A DNA stretch of 64,000 bases from a phage: the sequence record PX104378.1. One strand, given 5' to 3'. The notes below the pieces were generated by a model. That model was given only the letters and a program-made list of their open reading frames with translations. It did no database searches and was not told the origin of the DNA. Made by a program: the position numbers and the translations under genes. How positions within the stretch are numbered: position 1 is the stretch's first letter; every line of letters begins with the position of its first letter. Of this stretch, positions 17,356 to 58,136 are shown piece by piece.

Positions 17356-19464
17356 TTAAAATTTAACATTCTTAACCAGTTTCATAAAGTCTTGTGCGCG
17401 TTTGTCGTTATGCAGAATACGATACCAGTTATCTACAATATCATACAGTAACGGGCTATTCTCTTTAAACTTCGCACAAACTGCTTTAATTCGTTCGTTT
17501 GCTGCCGTGAATTTTTCATCACAAATCTTTTTAGTTTCTTCGTCCATAATCCAACGAGTACGAAGGAGTAACTTGGAAACCTCTTTATTATAATGACGAC
17601 CGTACAGTCTGTCAATAAATTCTGGAATACAGCGTTCTAATTCATCGTCATGAAACAACATAGTGATCACACCCAGATATTCGCCATACCCCAGATGATT
17701 GGTCTTAACCTTCTTAGCCAGACCAGCCAGCTTACCGCGAACAAATTCTAGCGCACATTCCAATTGTTCGTCAACGAGATATTTTTGTGTCTCATTACGG
17801 GTAATAATATACTTTGTTACCCCGAAGTAGTCAAGCGCTGTGTGTAATGTATTTTCACTATAGATCGATTGACGGCTACGGCTTTCGAATGCATCACCCA
17901 CGCGGAACATGTGCAAGCCTGATAACTCGCGAATCTCTGCCGCTTTCATGTGATGGCTGGTTTTATGCCAACTGTCACCAATCTTTTCCATGATATACAC
18001 GTTAGGCAGCTTAGGAGTAGCTTCACGCTGTACACGTTCGGCCTTCTCCGGCTTAACTGCTTTAGCACGCAGATCATCGGCCTCGGACACTTTAATCACG
18101 GTCATTTCCGATTCATCATAATACTGTTTGATGTACTCGAAAGTCTCCATATGTTTTTCGTTTCTCTGACGGAACACCAGTACCTTTTTATTGATGCCGT
18201 ATTCTTGGACCATGCCGTTAAGAGTCAGTGCACGTAGTTTCGGTTTATCGGTATCATCAATTACACACAGAATATCTTCTTTATGCATCCATACAAAATG
18301 CGTAATGTTGTATTGACTGCTAACGAAAGCAGGGCGCAATTTACTGATTGTGTGACGAGTACGATACAGAGTATACACCTGTCCTTCTACGTCATTTGGC
18401 GAATCTTTACCCGCATTCACAAACTTATTATAGATTGCTACCGGATCATCCCACTGTCCGATCTTACCCATTTTGCTAATAATATTGCGTTGAGTCGATG
18501 AATACTCGCTCATAAATTGCGCAAGTTTACGCTCTGTTTCAATGCTGGCGATCTTTTCTTTAACCTTTTCCAACATCATTTCATTGATTTCTGCAATGCG
18601 TTTTTCGATGTTCGCTTTAGTCTCAATTGACAAGTGAACTTCTTCACGCGATGGCATCAGGTCCAGATCACCTAACTCGAAATTGATGTAAATGGTCTGG
18701 TGCTGGCGGTTTACAGCTTCTAACCATGTTCCGCGAACATATTCATACGGGATCGGATACTGGATCTTACCCATGATTGCATATACCACATAGGAATCGT
18801 TATCACGTCCATTACACACATAATAATTATCAAAGCTAGGGAAATAATTAATTTCGATGGCATTGATATTAGGTTTGTGTTCCCCAAAATGACGCAGTAC
18901 AAATTGTGCTTCTCGATGCCATGTCTGAATATCTTTTTCCTTCACCGGAATAGTGATTTTCAGACCGTTGTCTTCATAGGTCGGTTCGTCGAAAATCTGC
19001 ACCATTTTCGGCATAGAGTTTTGCACGAATGCAGTAAAGCCATAAGCGCGACCATTGTAGTAGTTTACGATTGTAAAGGTGTCGGTGTAGCTATAAGCAG
19101 ATTTCGCACCTAAACCAAAAGATCCGATATAATCATTAGTCTGGTCTTTGGTTGATTCAAAGTAAACAGTAAACAGTTGTTCTAATTCTTTCTTAGACGG
19201 AATACCCGTACCATAATCACGCACAGAGAAATACGGTTCGATTGCAGTCGGTAAATGAATATCAAACGGACGATCTAAGGTTCCGGCTTCTTTGTGAGTG
19301 TCGGTAGCATTACATGAATACTCACGGACGCAAGCACGCTCACAATATTGATAAGTGTTCTTAGAAAGCACCATAAAAGCCTTGCTACTTGCTTTCAGAG
19401 AAAAATCAACCGCACCGCTCAGGTCACTACCAAATACTTCTTCATTATCAATATGCATTTTCAT
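17356..19464 (-). CDS. rIIA: rIIA protein
   Basis: 702 aa (T4 725 aa); GHKL-ATPase-like N-terminal blocks (YIGSFGLGAKSAYSYTDTFTIVNYY), ..DYFP.FD.YY.., PSREE; GAGGATTATATT-ATG. Confidence 0.9.
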   Translation of the reverse strand: MKMHIDNEEVFGSDLSGAVDFSLKASSKAFMVLSKNTYQYCERACVREYSCNATDTHKEAGTLDRPFDIHLPTAIEPYFSVRDYGTGIPSKKELEQLFTVYFESTKDQTNDYIGSFGLGAKSAYSYTDTFTIVNYYNGRAYGFTAFVQNSMPKMVQIFDEPTYEDNGLKITIPVKEKDIQTWHREAQFVLRHFGEHKPNINAIEINYFPSFDNYYVCNGRDNDSYVVYAIMGKIQYPIPYEYVRGTWLEAVNRQHQTIYINFELGDLDLMPSREEVHLSIETKANIEKRIAEINEMMLEKVKEKIASIETERKLAQFMSEYSSTQRNIISKMGKIGQWDDPVAIYNKFVNAGKDSPNDVEGQVYTLYRTRHTISKLRPAFVSSQYNITHFVWMHKEDILCVIDDTDKPKLRALTLNGMVQEYGINKKVLVFRQRNEKHMETFEYIKQYYDESEMTVIKVSEADDLRAKAVKPEKAERVQREATPKLPNVYIMEKIGDSWHKTSHHMKAAEIRELSGLHMFRVGDAFESRSRQSIYSENTLHTALDYFGVTKYIITRNETQKYLVDEQLECALEFVRGKLAGLAKKVKTNHLGYGEYLGVITMLFHDDELERCIPEFIDRLYGRHYNKEVSKLLLRTRWIMDEETKKICDEKFTAANERIKAVCAKFKENSPLLYDIVDNWYRILHNDKRAQDFMKLVKNVKF

Positions 19465-19478
19465 AATATAATCCTCAC

Positions 19479-19736
19479 TTAATTAAAATCTTCTTTGTCC
19501 ATCTCTGCGTAGATTACATCCCACGCCCATAAATCAATAAACGCATTATATGTCACGGTGCAATCGTTGTCAATCACTTCTTTCGCATATTTCTTGATGT
19601 TTTCGTAGGAAACTTGCGGATCAATTTTGTTCTTCCGAAGGTGCGCATATTCATACCTCAAACATTTCATAAACAGGTCCATCGATTTCTTTTCTCGATG
19701 ACACTTGGCGAACATAAAATCAAAACTTCGACTCAT
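19479..19736 (-). CDS. Hypothetical protein
   Basis: 85-aa ORF; RBS AAGGAGTAGAAA-ATG. Confidence 0.5.
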   Translation of the reverse strand: MSRSFDFMFAKCHREKKSMDLFMKCLRYEYAHLRKNKIDPQVSYENIKKYAKEVIDNDCTVTYNAFIDLWAWDVIYAEMDKEDFN

Positions 19737-20528: not shown

Positions 20529-20556
20529 ATTATAGAGAATCTCCCTTGTATGTCAA
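20529..20556 (-). promoter_or_regulatory. Early promoter cassette (PeSL-like) overlapping the topo II stop
   Basis: TTGACA-16nt-TATAAT then GGGAG-T-CTCCC hairpin. Confidence 0.5.
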
Positions 20557-26843: not shown

Positions 26844-27368
26844 TTAGTAGCCGCGTTCTTGACGGGCGAAGTTTTCAGCATTTTTCAGATAGTACAGCTT
26901 GAAGATATCCTTAGCGGTTAAACCTAAGCCCAGCATTTTAATCAGCACAAAATGCCAGATATCGATCAATTCCATCGCAATTTCGGTTTTATCGTCATCT
27001 GACAGATCAGCAAATTTACGCGCTCGTGCTTCGCCGTGGTTCTTCTTCCACACTTTAGTAATTGCGCTTGCATCTTTGCCATTTGACATGCCACCCAGGG
27101 CAACATAAAGTTCTCGTGTCTCGTCGTCGATTGCGTCATCCCATAGCTTCATCCAATCAAGGATCTCCCCGCAAGTTTCCAGCTTATCAGGATGCGGCAC
27201 CCACTCAAATTTATCAGCTAGTGCGACCTGTAAGCCTTTTTGCATATCTAACATTACTTGCAGCGGATCTTTGCCGCTAGTGATTGCCTCGGAATACGCA
27301 ATACCAGCTTTAGACATAGTTTCGTCGCTAACCAGACCAGCACAAGAATTAAATTCTGACATATTCAC
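26844..27368 (-). CDS. 56: dCTP pyrophosphatase gp56 (MazG-like)
   Basis: 174 aa; KDPLQVMLDMQ, HPDKLET, ELIDIWHFVL, IFKLYYLKNAENFARQERGY closely match T4 gp56. Confidence 0.9.
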   Translation of the reverse strand: MNMSEFNSCAGLVSDETMSKAGIAYSEAITSGKDPLQVMLDMQKGLQVALADKFEWVPHPDKLETCGEILDWMKLWDDAIDDETRELYVALGGMSNGKDASAITKVWKKNHGEARARKFADLSDDDKTEIAMELIDIWHFVLIKMLGLGLTAKDIFKLYYLKNAENFARQERGY

Positions 27369-29968: not shown

Positions 29969-30018
29969 GTTATATCTCCTATCAAATCATTCACCAGCGC
30001 CCCGTAGGGCGCATTTTA

Positions 30019-31431
30019 TTAGAAAGTCATGTTATTTGCTAGCTCGTCGAGTTTTTCGCGTTTCTCGGCTTGCTGTGCGCTTTGTGGTTTAACTTGTGCA
30101 TTCTCCTGATCGGCGATCTGGTTTGGAACTTCATACCAACGCTGATTTCCTTTTTTCACACCAACATTAAACCGTGAATAGTAGTTCTTATCACCGTAAC
30201 GAGATTTAATCTGCTTGAGTAGTTGAACACCCATTTTTGCAAGGTCTTCGGTTTCAATTACACCCAACATAAAATCGGCTGTAGCCGGAAGACCTGCTGA
30301 TTCAGCGGTATCACTCATGTTAAGGTCGGAAGCATCCCAACCAGCACGGGTAGTCTGTGCCGCAGTCCAACCAACAACATCCCACTTAACAAAAAATCCT
30401 CGCAGTTCTTCCGCAATCGCCTTAACTAGTGTGTAACTATTTTCAGAGTATACACGCAAGCGAGACGATGCGCAAATCCCCAGATAGTCAACAATCACAA
30501 CATCAGGTTTAAACTGTTTCTTGAGTCGCAATTCATTCATTAACGCCTCAAAGTGATTGGAGTTCGCGCCACCAGTCGGATACTGCTTGATCATCAATTT
30601 TCCAACCGGACGATCTCCGATCTTCTTATTCTTAACACGCTTCATACGTGCGGAATATTCCGCAAAAGAAACATTACCATTATCCAATTCATCTAATGTA
30701 AGGTCAAGCAAGTTTGCGTCAATACGTTTGGCTACGACATGCTCTGCCATCTCCATTGAGATATACAATACATCATAACCACATTCCATATAATCCGCAG
30801 CAAGAGAACACAATCCAAGCGATTTACCAACGTTTACACCAGCAAGCAACACATTTAGCGTTTTTCTTTCCGCCCCTCCTTTCGTGATTTTGTTCAACAT
30901 CGGCAGTTTAAACGGGATCTTATTCGCTTTAGTCTGATATAGCAAGAATCGTTTTTCGAAGTCATTAAACCAGTCATGACCTACATCAGAATCAAACGTA
31001 ATGGATAGTGCTTCCTGCATGATCTCAGGAATAGCTCCCTCGCCAGGCAATTTCTTATTCTGTTTCTCTTTTGGTAGTTGTGCGTTCGCTTGAATCTCTA
31101 GCGCCCGTGACATTGCATTATACATGGCACGGTCACGAATAAATTTTTCGGTTTCCTTCATTAACCAATCAAGGTCTTCCGGTGTATTCTCAAGCGAATC
31201 AAGAAGAGTTTTAGCCCCTTCATATGTTGTCTGATTGCCTCTCTCCTTGTCTAAAGCAATCTGTAATGCAGTTGGCGTAGGAATATTGGAATATTCGTCT
31301 ACGTGCTTTTTAATCAGCTTATAAATCAGTTTTTCTTCGTCTTCGGTGAAGTAGTCCGCTTTAAGGTGAGGCCATACATTCGTAAAGAATGCGCCATTGT
31401 AAATCAACTGTGAAAAGATAGTTTTAATCAT
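30019..31431 (-). CDS. 41: Replicative DNA helicase gp41 (DnaB-like)
   Basis: 470 aa (T4 475 aa); Walker A LLAGVNVGKSLGL; RecA-like helicase core. Confidence 0.9.
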   Translation of the reverse strand: MIKTIFSQLIYNGAFFTNVWPHLKADYFTEDEEKLIYKLIKKHVDEYSNIPTPTALQIALDKERGNQTTYEGAKTLLDSLENTPEDLDWLMKETEKFIRDRAMYNAMSRALEIQANAQLPKEKQNKKLPGEGAIPEIMQEALSITFDSDVGHDWFNDFEKRFLLYQTKANKIPFKLPMLNKITKGGAERKTLNVLLAGVNVGKSLGLCSLAADYMECGYDVLYISMEMAEHVVAKRIDANLLDLTLDELDNGNVSFAEYSARMKRVKNKKIGDRPVGKLMIKQYPTGGANSNHFEALMNELRLKKQFKPDVVIVDYLGICASSRLRVYSENSYTLVKAIAEELRGFFVKWDVVGWTAAQTTRAGWDASDLNMSDTAESAGLPATADFMLGVIETEDLAKMGVQLLKQIKSRYGDKNYYSRFNVGVKKGNQRWYEVPNQIADQENAQVKPQSAQQAEKREKLDELANNMTF

Positions 31432-31745
31432 ACATAGCCCCCAACTACACGCATAACAAAGGTCTTGAGTTTATACCAGAAAGTTTCTTTTTTCAACTTT
31501 TCTTCTGCTTCTTTGATCTGCGCTGTTAACGCCTTAATGACGTGAGGATATACCACATCACGATCTGACGGCGTGGAGTAGTCGACCACAATACCTTTAG
31601 TGTCTGGATCGTATTCAACATTATGAATATAGACAATATGATGCTCTCCCTCTTCATCAACAATTATCAGTTCCTGAATAACTGTCTTCATTGCTTCTTG
31701 AATCAAGCCGTGTGCTTCTTCTAAACTTGTTGGTTTCTTATCCAT
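31428..31745 (-). CDS. 40: Hypothetical protein (position of T4 gene 40)
   Basis: 105 aa, hydrophobic C-terminus, between uvsX and 41 as T4 gene 40; positional assignment only. Confidence 0.4.
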   Translation of the reverse strand: MDKKPTSLEEAHGLIQEAMKTVIQELIIVDEEGEHHIVYIHNVEYDPDTKGIVVDYSTPSDRDVVYPHVIKALTAQIKEAEEKLKKETFWYKLKTFVMRVVGGYV

Positions 31746-31800
31746 AATATAATCCTCTCTAGATATGAAAAAGGGGCACGTAGCCCCTTTACTACCATTG

Positions 31801-32871
31801 TTATGCTAACATATCTTCGATTTCTTTGTCAACTGCTTCGTCGCTGATCACTTGCCCCAGCTTATAATGATCGTTGATTGCTTCGTTAAACTTATCGTTT
31901 GTCAGAAGTGGTTTCCAGAACTCAATGCTATTGGTTTCTTTAGCACGGAACTTGCGTTCTTCGGTTTCCATCTCTCCGGTCTCAGTATTCAGGATTGAAC
32001 GAGAATACCAGCCGTTTGACGGTTTCACTACCCAGCCTAACTCTACAGCCAACTCCAGCAAACCGGAATAAGGATCGATGCCACCGCTAAATGTTACGCT
32101 AATCGGGAACTTAGATTTTTCTTTAACGGTTCGTGATTTTTCCGCATTCAGGATAAAATCATAACCAGTAATTTCGGTTCCTTCTTTCTGCTGACGACGA
32201 CCAATAATGAAAACTTCATTGGCTGAATACATCGCGCCCGTACCGCCGGACATAACGGTCTTACTAAACATTTCTTGCGTTTCGTAAGTGTGGTTAATAG
32301 CGATGCACGGGATATCATTCATAGTCAGATATGGCGTCACCATACGGAACAAGCCTTTAAGTGCTTTAGCTCGCGTCATATCCTGTGCGGATTTCTCATT
32401 AATCGCGTCTTCAACTTCTTTTTTACTTGCTAAGTTACCGATTGAGTCAATAAAGATGATCACTTTATCTTCACGGGTAATTTGCTCAAGCTGGTTCATG
32501 ATTTCAAATTTAAGTTCTTCGATGTTCTTGATTGGAACATGCACCACGCGATCAGGATCTACACCCATAGATTCCAGATATGCGGAAGTAATACCGAACT
32601 CAGAATCAAAGAACAAACAAGCCGCATCGGGATTCTGTTTCATGTATGCACTAACACAAGTTAATCCCATGTTTGATTTAAAGTGCTTAGACGGACCAGC
32701 AAAGAAAATCAGACCAGATTGAAAGCCTTTTTTAAGATCACCGGAAAACGCAATATTCAGCATCGGGATCTTAGTGCGAGTATTTGTTTTTTCGTTAAAG
32801 AAGCTGGATTTAGACAGTACCGCAGTAGTTTTCAGGGTAGAGTTCTTTTTCAGTTTTTCCAATACAGACAT
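31801..32871 (-). CDS. uvsX: UvsX recombinase (RecA-like)
   Basis: Blocks TKIPMLNIAFSGDL, GPSKHFKSN, IPCIAINHTYETQEMFSKTVM, KSRTVKEKSKF match T4 UvsX. Confidence 0.9.
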   Translation of the reverse strand: MSVLEKLKKNSTLKTTAVLSKSSFFNEKTNTRTKIPMLNIAFSGDLKKGFQSGLIFFAGPSKHFKSNMGLTCVSAYMKQNPDAACLFFDSEFGITSAYLESMGVDPDRVVHVPIKNIEELKFEIMNQLEQITREDKVIIFIDSIGNLASKKEVEDAINEKSAQDMTRAKALKGLFRMVTPYLTMNDIPCIAINHTYETQEMFSKTVMSGGTGAMYSANEVFIIGRRQQKEGTEITGYDFILNAEKSRTVKEKSKFPISVTFSGGIDPYSGLLELAVELGWVVKPSNGWYSRSILNTETGEMETEERKFRAKETNSIEFWKPLLTNDKFNEAINDHYKLGQVISDEAVDKEIEDMLA

Positions 32872-32882
32872 TATTAATACCT

Positions 32883-33110
32883 CTATTCAGTTAATCCGTA
32901 ATACTTTAATTGCTTCATTGTTATTCGATCTTTGTAGTGCTCTTGAATTAACTTTTTCATCGCACCAACATCGATCGTCACAAATACTTCGTTGCTGTGA
33001 TTTCCGTGAACTTTCTTGAAATGCTCTATGCCTTCCTCACGTTCACGTTTAATCTTTTCAATGTCTCTCATAGTATATTTCTCACGTTGGCGGGTATCGT
33101 CACCCAACAC
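32883..33110 (-). CDS. Hypothetical protein
   Basis: 75-aa ORF, the only gene between uvsX and 43. Confidence 0.45.
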   Translation of the reverse strand: MLGDDTRQREKYTMRDIEKIKREREEGIEHFKKVHGNHSNEVFVTIDVGAMKKLIQEHYKDRITMKQLKYYGLTE

Positions 33111-33132
33111 CCGCCATTATACACACTTTATC

Positions 33133-35811
33133 TTAAATGTCAAACAGGTCTGTAAGAGATGCCACTTTTTCATATTGCAGCTTTGCAGCCGTGGTAATGT
33201 TCTCCAGTGGTTTGACGAAAGTCTTATTAAACAACAAAGGCCAGTCTAACCACTTTAACACCTCTGATTCAATTTCCGGCGGAATGCGAGTACCAGACAA
33301 CCAACCAAAACAGATTTCTCCAAACGGATTTCGATCTTTAAGCGGTACGATCATAACCTTCTCGCCTTCACGAATCGGATCTAGTCCGAATTTTCGAGCA
33401 TTACGATTATAACACAATACACTCTTAACCGCATATGGACAACCTTTGATCGGATACCCGTTTGAATCGCTGTATTTCTGTAGGTTGTTTGCAGATGATA
33501 CCGCAGCAACCTCAAGATAGTCAAGTTTTCTAAATTCTTGCTCAAAAATACCGTAGTATTCCTGCAATGACTCTTCACCTTCCTGCAACATACGGCGAAT
33601 ACATTCTTTCAGTGATTTCTGACATGCTTTAGGGGTAGAGCTACGTTGCGTTTCCAAGCCCATGATTTTTAGCTTAGGTTCAGCAAATCGCGTTCCTTCC
33701 ATATCCCAAACATTAAGAGCATAACGCTTTTTACCAGTCCAGAATCCACCGATACCCGCAGATTTCAACGGAGGACCAGCAATTGCCTCACGGTCCATAA
33801 ACATCAAGTGCTCATAGTTGTTCATGTACTCGCATAACTCGCGATATCCCTTGTCGATAATAGGTTCCATTCTATGCTTACCGAAATTATCAAGGAAGTC
33901 AACAAGTTTTTCGGTATCGTCGAAACGGTCTTCCCCGCCAACCTTATCAACAACATTGTTAACCAGCACATAAACGGAGTCAGTATCACAATAACGAACA
34001 TATGCAAAATCAGTTGTTCCGCAAAGCTCGTTTAAGTATTCGTTAATCTTACGCTCAATCCACTGAATTGCAAGCTGACCGAACAGTGTGATCGCACTAG
34101 CGTTACGGAGATCATAAAAACGGAATTTAGGATTCCCCAACGCACCATAAAGGGAGTTGATCAAAACTTTTCGAGAAAGCTGGTTTGTATTGCACAAGAT
34201 CGACTCGTCTTTACATTCTTCCAGCAATTTCTCTAAGGCATCTTTGCTCAATTCAGAAAGCATCGATTTAAACGCTTCATCGAAGTCGTGACGCACTTCA
34301 ACGCTATAGCTAATGGTTCCCCCATAAACATGATTTTCATCGTGTAGAATCGCTTTACATAGTTCAGCATTGCGATCACATGCCAACATCATGTTTTTGT
34401 ACTGCTTACGCTGATCGAATACCTTTTTAATCTCAATCGGTACGATACCATGAATATCTTTTCGATACATCCATCCGTTAGGCGAGCAAGAATACTCATC
34501 ACTAGGACGCGGGGCAGTTTTATTGATGTACTCGTGCATTGGTGCAGCATCAAAAGATCCAGCGATTGTTTCCGGCGAAATGTTAACCTGTCGAATAATA
34601 GATGGATACAGACTTGTTAAGTCAAAGCTCATCATCCAGCGATAAGCATTAGGTACTGGCTCTTTTACAAATGCGCCCGGATATGTCTGCTTAGGCTGTA
34701 TCTTATTTTCCGGTACTACTTTACCCTCAGCTTTCAGAGATCCGAAGATAATAGCATCCCATACTTTCATCGGGTTATAAACATGGTTAAATTTAATCTT
34801 TGCATAGAAACATAGACTATACACAAGATCGATAAATCCACGCTTTTTATCAATCGCCAGTACACGATCAACGTCGCCGATGTTATAATCGATGTAAAGT
34901 TGATGGTTGTCATCACGCAATTTCTTTAACGGACCATCATAATCAACCTTACCGATTCCTGTCTCGTATTCAGCAACATAATCTAATGCATATGTTGGTT
35001 GAGTCGTAAAGCTAAATTTCTTGTATAAGTCAATGTAGTCAAGGCTTTCGATCCCCATGATCGTAAATGCTTCACGCTCGTTGCCAAAATCATCCTGTGA
35101 GATTCGGGATTTAATCTTACCGCACGGGCTTAGACGGTTAGCGGTTCTACTTCCGAACTTATTACTGATACGTTTAATGATATATGGAATATCGAATGTT
35201 TCTGTGTTCCAGCCAGTGAAACCAACGGGTCGGTTTTCCTCAAAGAATCGGATGTATTCTAACAGCAATTCATCTTCTGTATCATAGACGTTATAAACAA
35301 CACGTTCTACAATATCTGGGCGAAGAATAGACTTGCTTGCTTCCCAAGATTCACCGTTTTTTCCTTTCAAATCAAATACAAAGAAACGATCATGTACGGA
35401 ATCATAATGCGTAATTGCATCGATAGGATATTTCGCTTCTTCTGGTTTAGGAAATTCTGGGGCAGTGACCTCAATATCAACCCATGCTACACGGATTTTA
35501 TTTCGGTCATATCGAATCTCTCCTTTATACGTATCGGACAGATAGGAGATGATAAAATCATCCATCCCTAGTGCCTCTTGCCCCATTTCCCCCATCTTTT
35601 TACGCCATTTGTTGGCCTCGTTCATAGATGGGAATTTTTTAGCAATGCAAGGCTTGCCATAGATATCTTTATAATTTGTAATCATGCCAGGCGCGGCATG
35701 ATGAAATAAAGTTGGCGTATATTCAACGTAACGCTCTTGTTCTTGTCCAGCATCATCAATATAACGCTCGTAGATCTTATCACCTACTCGCTCACATGAC
35801 AGAAAATACAT
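33133..35811 (-). CDS. 43: DNA polymerase gp43 (family B)
   Basis: Strong match to T4 gp43 (YGKPCIAKKFPSM, exo motifs, SLYPSIIRQVNISPETI, DTDSVYV, KKRYALNV); start set to ATG after AAGGAG (MYFLS...), 892 aa. Confidence 0.95.
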   Translation of the reverse strand: MYFLSCERVGDKIYERYIDDAGQEQERYVEYTPTLFHHAAPGMITNYKDIYGKPCIAKKFPSMNEANKWRKKMGEMGQEALGMDDFIISYLSDTYKGEIRYDRNKIRVAWVDIEVTAPEFPKPEEAKYPIDAITHYDSVHDRFFVFDLKGKNGESWEASKSILRPDIVERVVYNVYDTEDELLLEYIRFFEENRPVGFTGWNTETFDIPYIIKRISNKFGSRTANRLSPCGKIKSRISQDDFGNEREAFTIMGIESLDYIDLYKKFSFTTQPTYALDYVAEYETGIGKVDYDGPLKKLRDDNHQLYIDYNIGDVDRVLAIDKKRGFIDLVYSLCFYAKIKFNHVYNPMKVWDAIIFGSLKAEGKVVPENKIQPKQTYPGAFVKEPVPNAYRWMMSFDLTSLYPSIIRQVNISPETIAGSFDAAPMHEYINKTAPRPSDEYSCSPNGWMYRKDIHGIVPIEIKKVFDQRKQYKNMMLACDRNAELCKAILHDENHVYGGTISYSVEVRHDFDEAFKSMLSELSKDALEKLLEECKDESILCNTNQLSRKVLINSLYGALGNPKFRFYDLRNASAITLFGQLAIQWIERKINEYLNELCGTTDFAYVRYCDTDSVYVLVNNVVDKVGGEDRFDDTEKLVDFLDNFGKHRMEPIIDKGYRELCEYMNNYEHLMFMDREAIAGPPLKSAGIGGFWTGKKRYALNVWDMEGTRFAEPKLKIMGLETQRSSTPKACQKSLKECIRRMLQEGEESLQEYYGIFEQEFRKLDYLEVAAVSSANNLQKYSDSNGYPIKGCPYAVKSVLCYNRNARKFGLDPIREGEKVMIVPLKDRNPFGEICFGWLSGTRIPPEIESEVLKWLDWPLLFNKTFVKPLENITTAAKLQYEKVASLTDLFDI

Positions 35812-35843
35812 AATATAAACTCCTTCACTTACGAAAGACACTC

Positions 35844-35872
35844 ATTATAGGGGAATCGACTTAGTTTGTCAA
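35844..35872 (-). promoter_or_regulatory. Early promoter cassette upstream of gene 43
   Basis: TTGACA-17nt-TATAAT; flanking inverted repeat ATAGGGG..CCCCTAT. Confidence 0.55.
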
Positions 35873-35893
35873 TACCCCTATCCCATCAGTATC

Positions 35894-36256
35894 TTATCGC
35901 CCGATCTGATATTTCTCGATCAGCGTCCACTCTTCTTTCTGTTTAAAAGACAGTACACGGAAATTATTAACTTCTGTAGTTTCAAAATCACTATCAATCA
36001 GGGTGCATAGATTCCACTGCGCAAGAAGTTTTGCAATATTATTACGGCGCAATTCATCTTCCCACGTCATCTTAACACTACGACCATCTAATTTCAACAA
36101 CTCCTTGAAATGAACGATGTAATAGCGCCCCTTCTTCTGGAGAATATGACAAGACTGATACAGTGTCTTGTCTCGATTGTTGGCAATGCCGCAGCGGGTT
36201 AAAGTCTCCTTAATTTTAAGGAAGTTTTCAGGATTAATCAAATTAATTTCAATCAT
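35894..36256 (-). CDS. regA: Translational repressor RegA
   Basis: 120 aa; KETLTRCGIANNRDKTLYQSCHILQKKGRYYIVHFKE near-identical to T4 RegA. Confidence 0.95.
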   Translation of the reverse strand: MIEINLINPENFLKIKETLTRCGIANNRDKTLYQSCHILQKKGRYYIVHFKELLKLDGRSVKMTWEDELRRNNIAKLLAQWNLCTLIDSDFETTEVNNFRVLSFKQKEEWTLIEKYQIGR

Positions 36257-36257
36257 T

Positions 36258-36836
36258 TTACCACCTTTCTATAATCTTTTTAAGTCGTTTCCTTTCTGTC
36301 TGATTCTTAGTAACACCCGCCAAAAGTTCATCGGTCGCATACGGTTTAATGTGCTTCAATAACTTGTCCATATATCCCTTTTCATTAGCCAAATCGAGAT
36401 AAAATCGGGCGTCATCCATATTTACACAATATGCTTTCGCCGCTGCCATTAAAACCAATTTTTGGTCTAATTCTTCTGTTAGTTTAGCCCATTTACCGTA
36501 TCGTTTCCCCTTAGAAATACTCTGTAAGAGATAATCAAAATGCATTTGATCTGGGAGGCCATGACCGATTAAATTCATCACATACGCGCTATATAGGCAA
36601 TCTGCGTGCTGGGAAAGAGCGGTATTAATCCATCTCTGATTGTATGCAGAATTGTTCCCAACATTAACGCGCTGTTTATCTAAGGTGATATGATCCATCA
36701 GAGCAAATAATGCATTATCGGTTTTCTCGGTGAATGTGTCAGCTAATTCAGACACTTTTTCCCAATCACGAGAGCGCCATGCAATTTCATGCTCGTTTAA
36801 TTGTGTATCATCTTCACCGAAAAATTGACCTAACAT
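36258..36836 (-). CDS. 62: Clamp loader small subunit gp62
   Basis: 192 aa; LNEHEIAW, KGKRYGKWAKL match T4 gp62. Confidence 0.85.
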   Translation of the reverse strand: MLGQFFGEDDTQLNEHEIAWRSRDWEKVSELADTFTEKTDNALFALMDHITLDKQRVNVGNNSAYNQRWINTALSQHADCLYSAYVMNLIGHGLPDQMHFDYLLQSISKGKRYGKWAKLTEELDQKLVLMAAAKAYCVNMDDARFYLDLANEKGYMDKLLKHIKPYATDELLAGVTKNQTERKRLKKIIERW

Positions 36837-37810
36837 TATACGAACTCCAATTCAACCATTAATTGCATTAACAAAAAGACAATGTGAATCTCTTTATCAG
36901 CCGCGTGTGCAAACATCTGATTATTTTCACCGATAATCTCGGTCAGACGAATAATCGACGCTGGCTTAACTTGAGTATACAACTCATTATAAAGTTTCTT
37001 GACAAATTGAGCGTATGTATTGGTATATCGCGGTGCAAGTTTACGCACATTAGCAAACTGTTTAGTTTTAAGTGCTTCCACCACATCAGTTACTTCGGTA
37101 TTGCTACTTTCGATAACCATGCTCAATACGCCAGCATCAATTTTACCATGTTTAGCGTAGCGGTCCAAAAGTTTCATTACGCGTCGGAAGTCTGGGAAGT
37201 TCTGCTTAACCAGTTCCGCTAATACGCGCATTTCTTCTACTGGCACACCTTCTTTATCAAGAATTGCTTTACACCGGACGATCATTTCTTTCATCATGCG
37301 AAGCTGATCATCTTTAGTCGGAGATCCAAACGTGATGGGGTCAAATCGAGATCGTAACGCCGGGATAATACCTTCTAGATCGTTTGCTGTGATGATGAAT
37401 GTCACGTTGTTTGAGTATGCCTCAGAGAAACTACGCAAGTGTCTTTGAGCATCAGCCAGCCCCGCTCGGTCATACTCATCGATAATAACAACTTTGCCTT
37501 TTTCTCGTTTTTCTTCATCAAGTGATACACTCTGCGCAAAGCGTGTAATCTCATCGCGGATAAAATCAATCTTACAATCTGCGCCGTTAACGAACAGATA
37601 ATCAACACCCACATCTTCGCAAAGCGCCTTAGCAACGGTTGTTTTACCAGTACCAGGCGATGGGCTATGCAGAATCATTGAAGGGATTCGGCCTTGCTTA
37701 ACAATCTGCGCGAAGATCTTTTTATCTGCTTCCGGCAGAATACATTCAGAAATTGATTTCGGACGGTATTTCTGTTCCCACTGAAACTCATTTTCATTAA
37801 CACTCAGCAT
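36836..37810 (-). CDS. 44: Clamp loader large subunit gp44 (AAA+)
   Basis: LHSPSPGTGKTTVAKALC Walker A, IIDEYDR, SRF; start set to ATG after GAGAGGTGA (MLSVNENEF...). Confidence 0.9.
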   Translation of the reverse strand: MLSVNENEFQWEQKYRPKSISECILPEADKKIFAQIVKQGRIPSMILHSPSPGTGKTTVAKALCEDVGVDYLFVNGADCKIDFIRDEITRFAQSVSLDEEKREKGKVVIIDEYDRAGLADAQRHLRSFSEAYSNNVTFIITANDLEGIIPALRSRFDPITFGSPTKDDQLRMMKEMIVRCKAILDKEGVPVEEMRVLAELVKQNFPDFRRVMKLLDRYAKHGKIDAGVLSMVIESSNTEVTDVVEALKTKQFANVRKLAPRYTNTYAQFVKKLYNELYTQVKPASIIRLTEIIGENNQMFAHAADKEIHIVFLLMQLMVELEFV

Positions 37811-42689: not shown

Positions 42690-43724
42690 CTAACTTTTTG
42701 CGCTATTTACTTCGGCTAAAAGTTCATCAGAAATACGCTTGACCGCCGCAAGTTCATCCGGTTCTAGGTTTTGTTCTTCCAGATATTCGTAAACCATTTG
42801 AATAGTGCTTTTAACCTCAATAACACCAGTTTCCTGTGATGCGCTACTCTCCAGCTTATGGACCACTTTTAGCTTGTGTACAACGGCCTCTAACGCGCTT
42901 TCTAACTTAGTTAACCCATTATCAGCGACCGTTGCGATAAGACGCACACTAAGCCCCTTATAGCGTTCTACATCGATTTTATCATCTGACGGGTAAGTGA
43001 TACGCACATGATAAGTTTTGTCATTCTGGATAAACTCTTTTTTGTGTGTATCGGTATCGAATACCCAAAAACCACGCGGATCGTTTTCGTCACCAGCCGT
43101 TAGTGTGTATGGTGTACCGATATACGTTACGTTACCGCCATCGCTGATAGTATGAAAGTGACCAGAAAACACTTCACGATATTTCTTGAGGAAGTCCGCG
43201 CTATAACCTTCGGATTTTAGCCCTTTATAGAAATAGTAACCAGACAATTCCCAATGGCCTACACAATATTCGCTGAATGAGTTTTGAATAAACTCTAAAA
43301 TCTCTGATTTATTGTCATCACAAAACCACGGGAACAGATCAAATGATACACCATCAAAGGTGACTGTTTCCGGTTTATCAATAACCTTAATGCAATCATA
43401 CTGGCTTAACACTTCACGCGGTGCGTTAGGCTGGATCTTGTTTCGTTTAAACATATCATGATTCCCGACCGTGGTATAACAAGTAATACCAGCCTCTTCC
43501 AGTAGCGGGATAATTTTCGTTCTATTAAAACGCATAGTTGCATGTGTGATTGCTTTTCGGCAATCAAACCAGTCCCCTGTCTGAATCCATGCCTTAATAT
43601 TATGTTTTTTTGAATAATCGACTGCCTTTTTAATAGTATCAAGAATATACTCATGTATCCACGGATCATCGTTGCCGATACCAGTATGCAGATCACCTAA
43701 AAGCAAAATTTTCATATTATACAT
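42690..43724 (-). CDS. 47: Recombination nuclease subunit gp47 (Mre11/SbcD-like)
   Basis: Phosphoesterase motifs (LLLGDLHTG, GDWFD, GNHD, GHFH) and long blocks matching T4 gp47. Confidence 0.9.
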   Translation of the reverse strand: MYNMKILLLGDLHTGIGNDDPWIHEYILDTIKKAVDYSKKHNIKAWIQTGDWFDCRKAITHATMRFNRTKIIPLLEEAGITCYTTVGNHDMFKRNKIQPNAPREVLSQYDCIKVIDKPETVTFDGVSFDLFPWFCDDNKSEILEFIQNSFSEYCVGHWELSGYYFYKGLKSEGYSADFLKKYREVFSGHFHTISDGGNVTYIGTPYTLTAGDENDPRGFWVFDTDTHKKEFIQNDKTYHVRITYPSDDKIDVERYKGLSVRLIATVADNGLTKLESALEAVVHKLKVVHKLESSASQETGVIEVKSTIQMVYEYLEEQNLEPDELAAVKRISDELLAEVNSAKS

Positions 43725-43730: not shown

Positions 43731-44285
43731 CTAAAAATTTTTAACACCATATTCACCAAAATAAAGATCAACCGCTTTGTCATAAGCTCTAGCCGCATCT
43801 TCTTCGTTGACATAATACCCAAGAGATATTAGTTTATCATTATTTCGTATTCTTGCAACCCATTTCTTCGTATGTTTATGCCAGCTAACTCCTTTATACT
43901 TGCTTGCTTTATTCTTGTACTTTCCAACGTTACAAGCATTTTTCTTTGCGTCGGACTCTCTAAGATTGCGCGGTGCGTTGTTTAAAGGATTTCGGTCTAT
44001 ATGATCTATAATTTCTGGTTGTGTTCCATGCTCAAGAAACCATACAACACGATGTACATATGGCTTTAAAACCCTCCCATTATCCATAACGATTGCAATT
44101 TGGAGATGATCCTGACTTTTAAAAGTTTTTACTTTATCTCCTGCCTTATAAAACTTTCCTTCGTAATTCTTTCCTCCGGCTCGGCTATTCTTTAAATGAT
44201 AAAGAATACCCTCATCGTCATGTCTATATCTTTCTCTTATAATTCGTTGCGTTTCTTCATCCCACAATTTGGAACGTCTACTCAT
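43731..44285 (-). CDS. HNH homing endonuclease with AP2 DNA-binding domain
   Basis: HNH core HRVVWFLEHG..IDHIDRNPLNNAPRNLR followed by AP2-like YKGVSWHKHTKKWVARI...LGYY..EEDAARAYD. Confidence 0.8.
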   Translation of the reverse strand: MSRRSKLWDEETQRIIRERYRHDDEGILYHLKNSRAGGKNYEGKFYKAGDKVKTFKSQDHLQIAIVMDNGRVLKPYVHRVVWFLEHGTQPEIIDHIDRNPLNNAPRNLRESDAKKNACNVGKYKNKASKYKGVSWHKHTKKWVARIRNNDKLISLGYYVNEEDAARAYDKAVDLYFGEYGVKNF

Positions 44286-44376: not shown

Positions 44377-44664
44377 TTACAGCATACTTAATACCGTTTG
44401 CCGTGTACTAACCCACATAGCAGAAAGCAGTTCTGGCGTGTGTGGCTGTTTGTAGATATCACGCAATTTTCCGATAGCGTAGATATACGCATCACGGTTA
44501 TCATCGATGATAGCTTGTTCAGCCCACCGCTTAAGGCGTGCAATCTCTCGCGAGTTCTTACGCAAGATCTTTTCCGCTTTCTTAGCGGCTTTCGCCTCTA
44601 GTTCTGCTTGTACTTTGTCTACTTCATTCACTACAATCTTGTCATGTTGTTCATCGTAAGTCAT
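44377..44664 (-). CDS. Hypothetical protein
   Basis: 95-aa ORF between 55 and the HNH gene. Confidence 0.5.
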   Translation of the reverse strand: MTYDEQHDKIVVNEVDKVQAELEAKAAKKAEKILRKNSREIARLKRWAEQAIIDDNRDAYIYAIGKLRDIYKQPHTPELLSAMWVSTRQTVLSML

Positions 44665-44665: not shown

Positions 44666-44899
44666 TTATTTTCCTTCTGGGATATAGTCGATGATTAAAG
44701 AAAACTCATCTTCTGATACATTATAGCTATGTGAGATTGTACCCGTCAAGACCTCAAGATCCGGTGATTTGATATTGCACGGATCGATAATCACCGGAAC
44801 GCCGCAATCTCTCAAAAATAATTTGGCGAAATACGGCACAAGGTCAGTTTCAAACTCTGCTTCTTCCAGCAAACGGGAAATGTTAATTTTCAATCTCAT
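44666..44899 (-). CDS. Hypothetical protein
   Basis: 77-aa ORF immediately downstream of 55. Confidence 0.5.
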
Positions 44900-45416
44900 A
44901 AAATTGGTCCAGGCTAGGCAATTCCTCGGTCAATACATCTTCAACCTTTGGCGCTTTCGGTTTATTGACCGATTCCTCGTAGTTGTTGATCTTATCGTAA
45001 ATGTCCTGTATGAATGCCTCATCAGCAATCTGGCACATATCAGCGTCGCGTTCGTCATATACATGATGCACAAAATATTTGTATTTTGCGGCTGTCGCTG
45101 TTCTCTCTTTTTTAATGCGCTGTACAAAAGCATTAAAGCACGCTTGCGTGATGTAAGCATGAGGATTTTTATACTTTGTCTCGTCAAAATTAATCAAACC
45201 CTTGACCGCCGCTTCGATTCCATCGTCGATCATTTCTTCGCGCCATGTTTGACTATAGCCAGAAAAGTTAAAACGCCGTGATAGATTTTTAGAGATTTGC
45301 ATAATTGCTAGGCCGATTTGGTTGCTCATAGGCACTTGTCGACCTTCGGCTGCAATTCGTTGTTTCCAACGACAAATTTCTTCGTAAAGCTCTTTATTGT
45401 TTACATAATCAGACAC
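44883..45416 (-). CDS. 55: Late sigma factor gp55
   Basis: YVNNKEL; [61 protein letters not shown] near-identical to T4 gp55. Confidence 0.95.
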
Positions 45417-45456: not shown

Positions 45457-46926
45457 CTATTCCCCATTGCCATTATACTTTCTTTGCTTAGTTATCCACA
45501 CTCTAACCATCTCTACTGATTCACCGTCAGACGGATCAAGAGTTTTTCCTTTTTTCTTCATGCGGTACTTAAATCCGTTAAATCTTGCATTCTCTTGCTC
45601 GTTAAAGTCGAACATCTTTTTAAATGATTTTCGCCCTTTACGCTCACCACATTCTAGCGGAATCATTCGGTCTGTTATTACATTGGCATTAGGTAGAAAC
45701 GTTTTTAGATAATCTACCAACGCCCAATCAGGAACATATAGATTAACATTCTCCTTGCTCTCGTTGTCTCTCAGGTTACAACGCAAACATAATTGAAATG
45801 CTGGTTCCAGATAATCAGACACATGACGCGCTTTCAAAAACTCATTTGTCGGGAGATCACAACTATTAGCAAGACCTTTTAAAATATCAATCTCCCATCG
45901 TTGAGGGTTAAAGCTGAACATCACCGCAACATTTTTATGATGAATGTAAGAGTTAAGACCATAAGACCCGTAAGGTATCCGCTCACCAATACCATTTGTA
46001 CACGCTTCACGGTCCCGATTCACGGTATAAATGAAGTCATCACCACATTCATTTTTAACCATATCAACAAGACGTTCAAAGGTATTGTTTGTTTCTGACT
46101 GGTGACGCGACCAGCGTTCGGAGTCCGTCATAAGGATGATATTAACTCTATCTGTATTTTTATACTCTTTGAAATATAGTCTGGATTCTAGCGCACTCGG
46201 AACAAAATCGCAATTTGCATAGTATCGTAGATACTTCCCGCTATATGTATCAAAGAGATTTGCACATGCTATCGTAACCTTTTTAAAGTCTCCCCACGTA
46301 CCGTGTTTGTTATCGTTCAAGAAAACAATTTTCGACCCATTCTTCCGGTGTCCTTCGTTATGTTTTACCATAACGTTGATTTTCTTCTCTAATAACGCCT
46401 CATAAAGCCCTCTAAGAGAAGAATCGATCATATCAGTACCATCCTTTGCACTTTCTATCTTTTCTTTGATAGCGGCCTTCTCAGAGTCTTTTAGAACTAG
46501 GTTCTGTAGGCATTCCGATTCGTCGGCGATTGGTTCGCAATGCTTCGTGATAAGTTCAAGATTAGACTTAAACGGATACTCATTAAATTCAACCAGTTGA
46601 GGAACTTCATCAATGTAAAGAGCATATTCACTAAACATTTTTGAACGCTCCATATTAGATAACGCTGTATGTGTGATGAATATCACATCAGCACCATCTT
46701 TAACTGATTGCATTATCGACGCTTGCACTGTCTTAAGGCTTCTTAGTCTGGTGCTATCAATCAAGACAGCACGACCGCCCATTCTTTTAAACTTATTGTA
46801 AGATTGTTCACTTAAAACACGAGATGGCGAAGCAATAACCGCTTTTTCTTTTGTCTCTAGGACGTGGGAAAGTATAGCATCAGTTTTCCCCGCCGCTGGC
46901 AATGCGATTAATGTTTCAATCTTCAT
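45457..46926 (-). CDS. P-loop NTPase of unknown function
   Basis: 489 aa; N-terminal Walker A-like ALPAAGKTD, SF2 motif-Ia-like ASPSRVL, Walker B-like LYIDEV; large C-terminal region without recognised motifs. Confidence 0.6.
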   Translation of the reverse strand: MKIETLIALPAAGKTDAILSHVLETKEKAVIASPSRVLSEQSYNKFKRMGGRAVLIDSTRLRSLKTVQASIMQSVKDGADVIFITHTALSNMERSKMFSEYALYIDEVPQLVEFNEYPFKSNLELITKHCEPIADESECLQNLVLKDSEKAAIKEKIESAKDGTDMIDSSLRGLYEALLEKKINVMVKHNEGHRKNGSKIVFLNDNKHGTWGDFKKVTIACANLFDTYSGKYLRYYANCDFVPSALESRLYFKEYKNTDRVNIILMTDSERWSRHQSETNNTFERLVDMVKNECGDDFIYTVNRDREACTNGIGERIPYGSYGLNSYIHHKNVAVMFSFNPQRWEIDILKGLANSCDLPTNEFLKARHVSDYLEPAFQLCLRCNLRDNESKENVNLYVPDWALVDYLKTFLPNANVITDRMIPLECGERKGRKSFKKMFDFNEQENARFNGFKYRMKKKGKTLDPSDGESVEMVRVWITKQRKYNGNGE

Positions 46927-47393: not shown

Positions 47394-47652
47394 AAATCGC
47401 CCTCAGTTCTTTATAGCCTCCAATGTGCTCGTTGTCAATGAATATCTGGGGGTATACAAACCGGAGGCTCTTTGAGTTTAGCCTCCCCGCCAGTTCTTCA
47501 ATCATATCACGGTCGGGAATAATGTCAACCCCGACCTGCTTGAATACTGGTTTAAGTGTATACGGAATACCCAGATCATCCAGTAGCTTCATTGCACTAA
47601 TACAACCATAACAATGATAAGCCTCTTTCGGTATACCGTATATCTCGATCAT
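47383..47652 (-). CDS. nrdH: Glutaredoxin-like protein (NrdH-like)
   Basis: 89 aa; CxxC active site CYGC near N-terminus; glutaredoxin motif VYPQIFIDNEHIGGYKEL; adjacent to nrd genes. Confidence 0.7.
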   Translation of the reverse strand: MIEIYGIPKEAYHCYGCISAMKLLDDLGIPYTLKPVFKQVGVDIIPDRDMIEELAGRLNSKSLRFVYPQIFIDNEHIGGYKELRAIYDY

Positions 47653-48146: not shown

Positions 48147-48147
48147 A

Positions 48148-48981: not shown

Positions 48982-48993
48982 AATATATTCCCC

Positions 48994-49461: not shown

Positions 49462-49465
49462 AATA

Positions 49466-51827: not shown

Positions 51828-51927
51828 GTTGTCCTCTCGTTGTTTTCGATGTGAGCATTATACATTAGCCAATCATGTTGTCAACACCCCAAAACGAAAA
51901 AGCCGACCCTTTCGGATCGGCTGAAAA

Positions 51928-57033: not shown

Positions 57034-57327
57034 TTAACCATTAATCTTGTTTTTGACTACAAAGGATCGGAACTCATCAAAGCCACCAATATAATCACCA
57101 TTATAGAAAATCTGCGGCATGGTGGCAATAACTTCTACCCCTGCGCGATCCTGAATGTCGGCAATGATAGAATCAATCTTTACCGGACGACCGTTTTCGT
57201 CTACACCATCATTAACCGGAATGTAGATGTAAGGGATCTTACGCGATTCACAAAGGCGCTTTGCATTCTGGCAATACTTACAGTTGTAACCTTCAAAACC
57301 AAAAATTTCTACCATGTTATACCTCAA
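57034..57327 (-). CDS. nrdC: Thioredoxin/glutaredoxin NrdC
   Basis: 97 aa; active site CKYCQNAKRL (T4 CVYCDNAKRL); MPQIFYNGDYIGGFDEF. Confidence 0.85.
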   Translation of the reverse strand: MRYNMVEIFGFEGYNCKYCQNAKRLCESRKIPYIYIPVNDGVDENGRPVKIDSIIADIQDRAGVEVIATMPQIFYNGDYIGGFDEFRSFVVKNKING

Positions 57328-58136
57328 TCTACGTTAGTTACATAAACTTCTTGCGTATCAGAAGACTTACCACCTGAACGATCTAGGCAATAGGTCTTAT
57401 TCAACAGGACGCAGTTTAAATCATTCCGCTTGATAAAGTCAAGGAGATGATCATTTACCTTTCCCTTATGATGTGTGACATTACTGATACCAAACTGAAA
57501 ACCACGCGCCATAATAGATTCTACCCACTGATAGAATTTAATCTCTTCCTCGTCACTCCAAAACTTATTATATTCCGCAGAAGTGATAAGGTATGGAGGG
57601 TCCAAATAAACGAAATCACCCGGCAAGATCTCGATCTCGTCATATCGTCCAGAAGTAAAATTGATTCGACCGTCTTTGTTTTCTTCCTTAAAATTCAGGA
57701 CACGCTCTACCGCGTTTTCGTTAAAAGTCCGGCGACCAAAATTAGCATTAAATTCGCCCTTCCGGTTATGGCGGTTAATGTTGCTAAAACTATGTTGAAT
57801 CAACACAAACAGAGATAGCGGATCTGGATTCTCGTTATACTTCTTGCGGAATGCCATGTAAGCATCTTTATCATCACGAGACAAACCATTTTCGGCAATA
57901 ATCCGCTTGATCGTAGAAACCGGATCAGGACACTCGTCAATCGCTTTGTACGCTTCAATTAAGCGGTGATCATAGTCATTAGCCAGCACATCCCCTTCGA
58001 CGTACAGAGACACGCTCAAGCCGCCACAAAAGGCATCAACAAAGCGGTTATAGTGCTTAGGGAAATACTTACTAACACCCGGCAATAACTTTTCCTTATT
58101 GCCAGTATAGGGAATTAAACCTAATGCTTTCTTCAT
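57324..58136 (-). CDS. dam: DNA adenine methyltransferase Dam
   Basis: YTGNKEKLLP, FVDAFCGGLSVSL (motif I), LPGDFVYLDPPYLITSAEYNKFWSDEEE (motif IV DPPY) match T4 Dam. Confidence 0.9.
   Translation of the reverse strand: MKKALGLIPYTGNKEKLLPGVSKYFPKHYNRFVDAFCGGLSVSLYVEGDVLANDYDHRLIEAYKAIDECPDPVSTIKRIIAENGLSRDDKDAYMAFRKKYNENPDPLSLFVLIQHSFSNINRHNRKGEFNANFGRRTFNENAVERVLNFKEENKDGRINFTSGRYDEIEILPGDFVYLDPPYLITSAEYNKFWSDEEEIKFYQWVESIMARGFQFGISNVTHHKGKVNDHLLDFIKRNDLNCVLLNKTYCLDRSGGKSSDTQEVYVTNVD

Follow-up and report, generated by a model that had tools for sequence, protein, structure and literature searches.

A Krischvirus Phage that Probably Replicates with Ordinary Cytosine: Missing T4 Modification Genes and Purged Restriction Sites

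Introduction

In phage T4, the interval from the recombinase gene uvsX to the DNA polymerase gene 43 spans 3,635 bp and carries, in order, segA, beta-gt, 42, imm, and imm.1, whereas in the stretch of phage DNA analyzed here (64 kb, hereafter the window) the same two genes are separated by only 261 bp (positions 32872-33132), and the entire gap is made up of an early promoter, a stem-loop, and one small ORF. This locus raises the question of whether the DNA of the phage simply lacks glucosylated hydroxymethylcytosine (hmC), whether its cytosines are modified by a different chemistry, or whether the T4-type genes have moved to another part of the genome. Since the difference is one of gene content, chance is not at issue. 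The evidence presented below favors, with a probability of roughly 0.9, a Krischvirus phage that replicates with ordinary cytosine and without the hydroxymethylcytosine network of the T-even phages.

The absence of cytosine-modification genes in the RB49-like group has been known for more than 20 years and is a textbook property of the pseudo-T-even phages; the genes missing from the RB49 type (42, alpha-gt, beta-gt, alc, and denB) and those kept (56, denA, and dam) have already been tabulated in reviews. The consequences of this gene content are also known: the phages are susceptible to both Cas9 and classical restriction, they are able to carry out generalized transduction, and their DNA is amenable to cloning and digestion. 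The only points arising here that might merit a short follow-up are a purge of restriction sites from the genome and an inconsistency surrounding the published DNA chemistry of the Krischvirus phage SAP.

Placement of the Phage

Coliphage RB49 (Krischvirus; NC_005066) aligns with the window in seven collinear blocks that extend over all 64 kb at 92-97% nucleotide identity, with the RB49 counterpart running from 146545-164018 and then from 1-46591. It begins in the tail-fibre genes, continues through rIIB, rIIA, and the replication genes, and ends past dam. Positions 30000-37000 match 59 phage records at 95-99% identity, and all of the classified ones belong to the genus Krischvirus (e.g., UPWr_E1 at 98.2%, RB49 at 97.9%, and SAP and TB34 at 97.8%; ECD7 was also matched). 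No database record more than 99% identical to the window was found, and judging from its sequence the phage appears to be a new isolate (strain or species) of a well-known genus and nothing more. The likeness to RB49 includes the arrangement of the loci discussed below: uvsX, a 62-aa ORF (RB49p025), and gene 43 follow the same layout, annotated early promoter included; the same block of HNH endonuclease, alpha-gt.4, and alpha-gt.5 lies between genes 47 and 55; and genes 56 and dam occupy equivalent positions.

Alignment to RB49 left five segments of the window without a counterpart (6722-7417, 9319-9526, 10757-11120, 12095-12617, and 48383-48650), the largest of which falls in the distal tail-fibre gene. 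All of them are at most 700 bp long and are therefore too small to hide gene 42, alpha-gt, or beta-gt. The window contains no tRNA genes detectable with ARAGORN, and T4 MotA and AsiA queries returned no tblastn match in either the window or RB49. Krischvirus has been characterized as a genus with cytosine DNA, no hmC, and no tRNAs (Korf et al., 2019; PMC6563267). Plus-strand ORFs called at 11750-13425 were discarded as low-complexity antisense artefacts of greedy ORF picking.

Gene Content at the T4 Modification Loci

The gap under study is flanked upstream by the gene 43 DNA polymerase (33133..35811, minus strand; 55% identity to T4 gp43 over 903 aa, E 0), the start of which was set by homology to RB49p026, and downstream by the RecA-like recombinase gene uvsX (31801..32871, minus strand; 63% identity to T4 UvsX over 350 aa, E 9e-151), which corresponds to RB49p024. 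The flanking replication genes of the window are in T4 order. The initial annotation had named beta-gt, 42, and imm as the genes that T4 carries in this interval, which is accurate but incomplete, as segA and imm.1 are there too.

A second position at which T4 encodes a glucosyltransferase is the interval between genes 47 and 55, where the T4 order is 47, 47.1, alpha-gt, mobB, alpha-gt.2, alpha-gt.3, alpha-gt.4, alpha-gt.5, 55. In the window, the gene for the Mre11/SbcD-like nuclease subunit gp47 (42690..43724, minus strand; 56% identity to T4 gp47, E 4e-116) is followed by a free-standing HNH-AP2 endonuclease of the homing type (43731..44285, minus strand; Pfam HNH_3 E 7e-12, AP2 E 2e-10), which occupies the place of T4 47.1, alpha-gt, and mobB. 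This endonuclease is variably present in the group, since it is found in RB49 (RB49p040) and is missing at that position in SAP. Next come homologues of T4 alpha-gt.4 (44377..44664, minus strand; 44% identity, E 2e-12; Pfam DUF2654 E 7e-23) and alpha-gt.5 (44666..44899, minus strand; 32% identity, E 2e-7; a weak DUF5491 match below the curated cut-off), and then the late sigma factor gene 55 (44883..45416, minus strand; 61% identity to T4 gp55, E 3e-67). Alpha-gt is thus gone from between 47 and 55, with an HNH endonuclease and two small ORFs in the interval, as had been proposed from the window alone; the small ORFs are the alpha-gt.4 and alpha-gt.5 homologues. T4 itself also has an HNH gene (mobB) together with alpha-gt.4 and alpha-gt.5 at this position, and what is actually missing is alpha-gt, 47.1, alpha-gt.2, and alpha-gt.3.

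Two genes associated with T4 DNA metabolism, 56 and dam, had been reported as present in spite of these absences, and tblastn with the T4 proteins together with Pfam bears this out. Gene 56 (26847..27362, minus strand) encodes an all-alpha NTP pyrophosphohydrolase of the dCTPase/dUTPase family with 51% full-length identity to T4 gp56 (E 3e-53). Its Pfam match to dUTPase_2 is above cut-off, a weak match to PRA-PH is just under cut-off, and no sequence relatives of the protein were found in the PDB. The dam gene (57324..58136, minus strand; 46% identity to T4 Dam, E 8e-64; MethyltransfD12 E 2e-30) encodes a D12-class N6-adenine DNA methyltransferase and lies beside nrdC, approximately 30 kb from gene 56, whereas T4 dam adjoins 56. 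GATC methylation by Dam does not depend on the state of the cytosines. The GATC count in the window is at expectation (O/E 1.0, 5.6 per kb), in contrast to T4, where the site is three-fold depleted.

T4 gp56 hydrolyzes dCTP/dCDP as well as dUTP/dUDP. Strong dCTPase activity would deprive a phage with cytosine DNA of one of its own building blocks, so an altered specificity or regulation of gp56 would be expected here, and the enzyme may act mainly as a dUTPase and supplier of dUMP for the thymidylate synthase Td. Almost every T4 relative carries gene 56, whether it has gene 42 or not (Petrov et al., 2010; PMC2993671), and because of this near-universal distribution its presence is not diagnostic of an hmC system.

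Search for the Missing Genes and for Other Modification Enzymes

T4 protein queries were compared by tblastn with the window and with the complete genomes of RB49 and SAP. No match to gp42 was obtained in the window, and in RB49 and SAP this query gave only td (E 0.006-0.008). Neither glucosyltransferase (alpha-gt, beta-gt) produced a match below E 0.5 in the window, RB49, or SAP; alc, denB, and arn had no matches in these three sequences, and nothing significant was recovered from them for imm, imm.1, or ndd. Relative to the glucosyl-hmC network of T4, what is retained comprises gp56 and Dam in the window and gp1, Cd, Td, and DenA in RB49 and SAP, where the corresponding genes lie outside the window-equivalent stretch, while 42, alpha-gt, beta-gt, alc, denB, and arn are absent from the complete genomes of these relatives. 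The 64 kb of the window were examined directly, and the absence across the remaining ~100 kb rests on the relatives; the search for gene 42 and the glucosyltransferases elsewhere in the genome, which the initial annotation had suggested, was negative in two complete and closely related genomes. The td gene of RB49 was considered as a disguised hydroxymethylase and rejected, as the Asn of its LPFN motif is the dUMP-specifying residue, for which gp42 has Asp, and the protein is 38-49% identical to T4 Td. Its Pfam domain is Thymidylat_synt, and no other locus of the ThyA superfamily was recovered from RB49 and SAP in the tblastn search with T4 gp42.

This distribution agrees exactly with the one published for the T4 relatives, in which 42, alc, and denB occur in the T-even, JS98, RB69, CC31, Acinetobacter, and 44RR types and not in the RB49 type (Petrov et al., 2010, Table 4; PMC2993671). 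Across these phages alc and denB track gene 42, and denA, like 56, is present in nearly all of them (PMC2993671). A further comparison is offered by the laboratory T4 mutants that make dC-DNA (42-, 56-, denB-, alc-): for T4-type replication to yield cytosine DNA, 42, denB, and alc have to be lost, and the same three genes are missing from the present lineage. In those mutants 56 must be inactivated, whereas here it is kept, a contrast that again suggests a different specificity or regulation of gp56, and the restriction sites of the present lineage have been purged.

The initial annotation had also raised a different modification chemistry, for which no support was found, since among the window ORFs that were scanned there is neither a glycosyltransferase nor a second enzyme of the ThyA type, nor any other enzyme that modifies bases. 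Glycosyltransferase, ThyA, radical-SAM, and other base-modifying domains were absent from the 20 window ORFs scanned with Pfam and the 10 scanned with PHROG profiles. A 489-aa ORF beside gene 55 is DEAD-helicase-like, and the other unannotated ORFs that were scanned belong to families of unknown function. About half of all ORFs in the window lack an assigned function, which leaves a small probability of an unrecognized enzyme. A pathway to 5-arabinosyl-dC of the Mosigvirus type would call for a 5-hydroxy-dCMP synthase (a second ThyA-superfamily homologue) along with arabinosyltransferases and genes for sugar precursors; no second ThyA homologue was detected in RB49 and SAP with the T4 gp42 query, and no sugar-modifying domains were detected in the scanned window ORFs. 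Apart from Dam, which the window encodes, the one modification enzyme seen is the methyltransferase-domain protein RB49p143, located elsewhere in RB49; RB49p189 is a DNA methyltransferase by annotation only and has no Pfam domain.

Restriction Sites as a Record of Exposed Cytosine

Counts of all hexamers were compared with a maximal-order Markov expectation. Only hexamers expected 5 or more times were considered, and an observed/expected ratio (O/E) below 0.3 was taken as avoidance. In the window, 17 of the 53 palindromic hexamers are avoided by this measure, versus 18 of 3634 non-palindromic ones (Fisher p 1e-23). RB49 (164 kb) is similar, with 23/60 palindromic versus 26/3958 non-palindromic hexamers (Fisher p 4e-31), and the corresponding figures for T4 (94 kb) are 1/52 versus 0/3586 (Fisher p 0.014). 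Palindromes that are wholly absent number 12 in the window (e.g., among observed/expected counts, TCCGGA 0/29, AAGCTT 0/18, GAATTC 0/15, and GGATCC 0/15) and 19 of the 60 in RB49, compared with none in T4. SAP has 20 hexamer restriction sites at zero copies, and 16 hexamer palindromes have no copy in any of the three sequences (the window, RB49, and SAP). Sites for the restriction enzyme EcoKI are also missing (0 versus 6.5 expected in the window; 0 versus 17 in RB49), and CCWGG is present at half its expected count, whereas T4 is at expectation for both CCWGG and EcoKI.

The avoidance appears to be actively maintained, because the window and RB49 have diverged by 3-5%, a distance at which, by a rough estimate, ~30-50 such sites would be expected to have arisen neutrally. 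Such a pattern is what exposed, unmodified DNA predicts, and it points to a lineage in which cytosines have been accessible to restriction enzymes. It reflects evolutionary history and is no direct readout of the chemistry of present virion DNA. The quantified loss of Type II and EcoKI sites relative to T4 thus represents sequence evidence for exposed cytosine DNA that is independent of annotation. No earlier description of site avoidance in RB49 or Krischvirus was encountered in the literature searched, and one may still have been published. Presumably, these phages would be protected from host restriction by the loss of recognition sites together with adenine methylation rather than by hypermodification of cytosine.

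The depth of the avoidance also bears on the possibility that the hmC cassette was lost recently by deletion at both loci, in which case the present layout would be a scar rather than a sign of a long-standing life with cytosine DNA. The persistence of alpha-gt.4 and alpha-gt.5 homologues beside an empty alpha-gt position is compatible with such an event, as are the retention of gene 56 and denA and the documented ability of PeSL elements, one of which appears to lie in the uvsX-43 gap (see below), to excise cassettes (PMC2839356). The core proteins are, however, just 50-63% identical to those of T4, indicating an old split from the T-even phages, and avoidance as strong as that of RB49 (19 zero-count hexamers in 164 kb) requires that unmodified DNA be exposed over a long period. 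Genes 56 and denA are uninformative in this respect, being present in nearly all T4 relatives irrespective of gene 42. Furthermore, the loss of 42 before that of alc and denB is lethal in T4, which counts against a recent deletion, and this scenario is considered very improbable.

Published Chemistry and Its One Discordant Result

Direct data on the DNA of close relatives are consistent with ordinary cytosine. The enzymes HpaII and NheI cut RB49 DNA and do not cut T4 DNA, and the study that showed this describes RB49 as a phage with neither the hydroxymethylase nor the beta-glucosyltransferase (Yaung et al., 2014; PMC4041780). More recently, HPLC/MS of the DNA of the Krischvirus phage TB34 detected only canonical nucleosides, and the genes for hmC formation and glycosylation were reported to be missing from the syntenic positions across the genus (PMC13390438, published in 2026). 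DNA without glucosyl-hmC, as the initial annotation had suggested for this phage, is therefore supported from three directions, namely the gene searches, the published RB49 digests and TB34 HPLC/MS, and the avoidance of restriction sites.

The same 2026 paper contains a discordant result. SAP, which the authors give as 99.96% identical to the unmodified TB34, was reported to contain approximately one-third 5-hmdC and two-thirds alpha-gentiobiosyl-hmdC, with alpha-glucosyl-hmdC also reported, and to be cleaved by the Type IV enzyme BrxU; the authors identified no pathway genes, and seven Tequatrovirus phages of their collection share the modification profile reported for SAP (PMC13390438). This is the sole published claim of hmC in a Krischvirus, and it conflicts with the gene content and the site avoidance of the SAP assembly itself. 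A mixed or exchanged lysate would be the simplest explanation for the hmC of SAP.

Taken at face value, the SAP report, with its glycosylated hmdC, its sensitivity to BrxU, and its missing pathway genes, is the main argument for cytosines that are hypermodified by enzymes unrelated to gp42 and the T4 glucosyltransferases and hidden among the orphan ORFs, and there are many ORFs in the window without a Pfam domain or known function in which such enzymes might be sought. The likelihood of this reading is nonetheless judged to be only a few percent of the whole. The SAP assembly is devoid of 42, alpha-gt, beta-gt, alc, and denB, and the near-identical TB34 has canonical cytosine; given that the SAP profile equals the Tequatrovirus profiles, a mix-up of lysates would be simpler than a new pathway. 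Additionally, modification-sensitive enzymes cut RB49 DNA, and the 16 sites kept at zero under apparent selection would be pointless if every cytosine were glycosylated, while T4, with its modified DNA, does not avoid them. Were the SAP result nevertheless correct, it would require that Krischvirus make hmC and glycosyl-hmC without a ThyA-like hydroxymethylase or recognizable glycosyltransferase, through orphan early ORFs whose activity is toggled by a few SNPs, and this more specific proposition is given a smaller chance still. Least probable of all is that 42, alpha-gt, and beta-gt have been relocated to a part of the genome outside the window, for although gene order departs from T4 in places (e.g., the ~30 kb shift of dam) and ~100 kb of the genome is unseen, neither of the two complete genomes searched (RB49 and SAP) carries any of the three, their absence from the type or genus is stated in three papers, alc and denB, which accompany gene 42 in T4 relatives, are missing too, and the restriction-site avoidance speaks against modified cytosine.

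The ORF, Promoter, and Stem-Loop of the uvsX-43 Gap

With replication on ordinary cytosine as the preferred reading, the contents of the gap can be described in their own right. The initial annotation recognized a single ORF of 75 aa between uvsX and gene 43; a single ORF it is, but not of that length, as the conserved reading frame is 62 aa long and starts from the ATG at 33071 (32883..33071, minus strand). The 75-aa version counts from a GTG within the stem-loop described below, whereas RB49 and ECD7 annotate the 62-aa version. The shorter form is favored because the matching PHROG profile (phrog_12120, E 3.5e-41, function unknown) comprises 62 residues and the 13 codons upstream of the ATG differ from one relative to the next, indels included. 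The 62 residues themselves are nearly invariant among relatives, with 99% DNA identity to RB49 and ECD7. The ORF, a homologue of RB49p025, stops 11 nt before the ATG of uvsX, and a GAGG precedes the uvsX start codon.

The 62-aa protein has no Pfam domain, and a search of 5.8 billion proteins yielded only four clusters of relatives, none of them below 92% identity. The protein is highly charged and has three predicted helices and no hydrophobic or membrane segment, and its AlphaFold model is of low confidence (pLDDT 61, pTM 0.30). A role as an analogue of Imm was considered and dismissed on account of this composition, since T4 Imm is a membrane protein. Our best guess, which is a tentative one, is that the ORF encodes a dispensable early accessory protein that is co-transcribed with uvsX.

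Upstream of the ORF lies a consensus sigma-70 early promoter, TTGACA-N16-TATAAT (33116..33143, minus strand), which matches the consensus at 12 of 12 positions and whose -35 box overlaps the final codons of gene 43. Nine perfect sigma-70 sites of this kind occur in the window, every one on the minus strand, versus 0.1 expected by chance, and the RB49 annotation carries a hypothetical early promoter at the equivalent site. Directly after the -10 box is a G+C-rich stem-loop with a 12-bp stem (33088..33116, minus strand), which has a minimum free energy of -23.1 kcal/mol (z -4.2; -21.5 kcal/mol for the hairpin by itself) and is not followed by a U-tract; none of 200 shuffled sequences folded equally well. 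The combined promoter and stem-loop element is unchanged in RB49 and ECD7.

In its sequence, the promoter and stem-loop of the gap fit the published PeSL cassettes of RB49 and phi1, in which a strong early promoter is joined to a stem-loop that ends or attenuates transcription arriving from upstream (Arbiol et al., 2010; PMC2839356). The features shared with PeSLs are a near-perfect TTGACA-N16/17-TATAAT promoter, an adjacent stem-loop with G-rich and C-rich arms, an intergenic location, and an orphan ORF as neighbor, and the position of the stem-loop 3' of the -10 box corresponds to one of the five subclasses described. One difference concerns the -35 box, which falls within the final part of gene 43 rather than in an AT-rich spacer. 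PeSLs favor neighboring orphan ORFs and plastic regions, including the gene 43 locus, and mediate the insertion and excision of small cassettes (PMC2839356, PMC4122927), and other PeSLs act as promoters and as terminators or attenuators in lacZ-fusion reporters (PMC2839356). A transcript initiated approximately 7 nt past the -10 box would start within the 5' arm of the hairpin, so that the full hairpin would form only on RNA reading through from gene 43. The stem-loop, although it lacks a U-tract, may thus attenuate or end these read-through transcripts, and the promoter would restart early transcription into the small ORF and uvsX.

Restriction-site avoidance

Palindromic restriction sites of 6 bp are subject to extreme and selective avoidance throughout the window (1-64000), as well as in the genomes of RB49 (L001-L004) and the Krischvirus SAP (L008-L011). 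Compared with maximal-order Markov expectations, 12 palindromes with expected counts of at least 5 have zero copies in the window (e.g., TCCGGA, 0 observed versus 29 expected; AAGCTT, 0 versus 18; GAATTC and GGATCC, each 0 versus 15). EcoKI sites are also missing (0 versus 6.5 expected), and CCWGG, GGCC, and AGCT are all underrepresented, whereas T4 demonstrates neither the palindrome avoidance, nor the EcoKI loss, nor the depletion of these three shorter sites. No description of such site avoidance in Krischvirus was found in the searchable literature. GATC occurs in the window at the expected frequency (359 sites, observed/expected 1.0); in contrast, it is approximately three-fold depleted in the T4 sequence (L005/L006; observed/expected 0.33), despite the fact that both phages encode Dam.

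The DNA of SAP has been claimed to be fully modified with hmC/gentiobiosyl-hmC (PMC13390438). None of the known pathway genes for these modifications are present in the SAP assembly (OZ034687.1, L008-L011), and the restriction-site purge of this assembly is the same as that of RB49. Tequatrovirus phages in the collection that includes SAP have a modification profile equal to the one reported for SAP (PMC13390438).

Insertions and variable regions

The junction of genes 47 and a-gt.4 carries an HNH-AP2 endonuclease in the window (43731-44285, minus strand) and in RB49, but not in SAP (L010, 13170-14573). This endonuclease has the behaviour of a mobile, free-standing enzyme of the homing type. 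Gene 43 (DNA polymerase) is intact in the window, while in some Krischvirus relatives it is split: in phage ECD7 (L007, 3134-6926) it forms two ORFs separated by an insertion of ~1.1 kb carrying an HNH endonuclease, and the hit structure suggests the same arrangement in Cognac, G2494, and G5211. Outside the window, the thymidylate synthases of RB49 (td; L003, 47210-48442) and SAP are 410 aa in length, with the Pfam Thymidylat_synt match broken into two parts by a ~135-aa insertion (residues ~118-253) that T4 Td lacks. The largest stretch of the window lacking an RB49 counterpart (6722-7417) falls within the 922-aa distal long-tail-fibre gene (5172-7940, plus strand), and is presumably a host-range variable region.

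Further ORFs and perfect promoters

Between nrdH and nrdG lie four tandem paralogous ORFs of 173, 277, 155, and 184 aa (47649-50020, minus strand), all matching phrog_5347 (unknown function; E 1e-53 to 1e-66); the 277-aa paralogue is extended at its N-terminus by a segment that gives weak goF-like PHROG matches. Immediately downstream of gene 55, where T4 contains only the small ORFs 55.1 and 55.2, the window encodes a 489-aa ORF (45457-46926, minus strand) with a weak N-terminal DEAD/DEAH helicase match (E 1e-6).

Perfect promoters (TTGACA-N16-18-TATAAT) number nine in the window versus 0.1 expected, all on the minus strand (17587-17615, 19545-19573, 20529-20556, 33116-33143, 35844-35872, 51857-51884, 54360-54387, 59729-59757, and 62695-62722). 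In several of them, short G/C stems flank or follow the -10 box, such as GGGAGT...ACTCCC in the promoter at 54360-54387 (minus strand), as described for the promoter-early stem-loop (PeSL) cassettes of RB49 and phi1 (PMC2839356).
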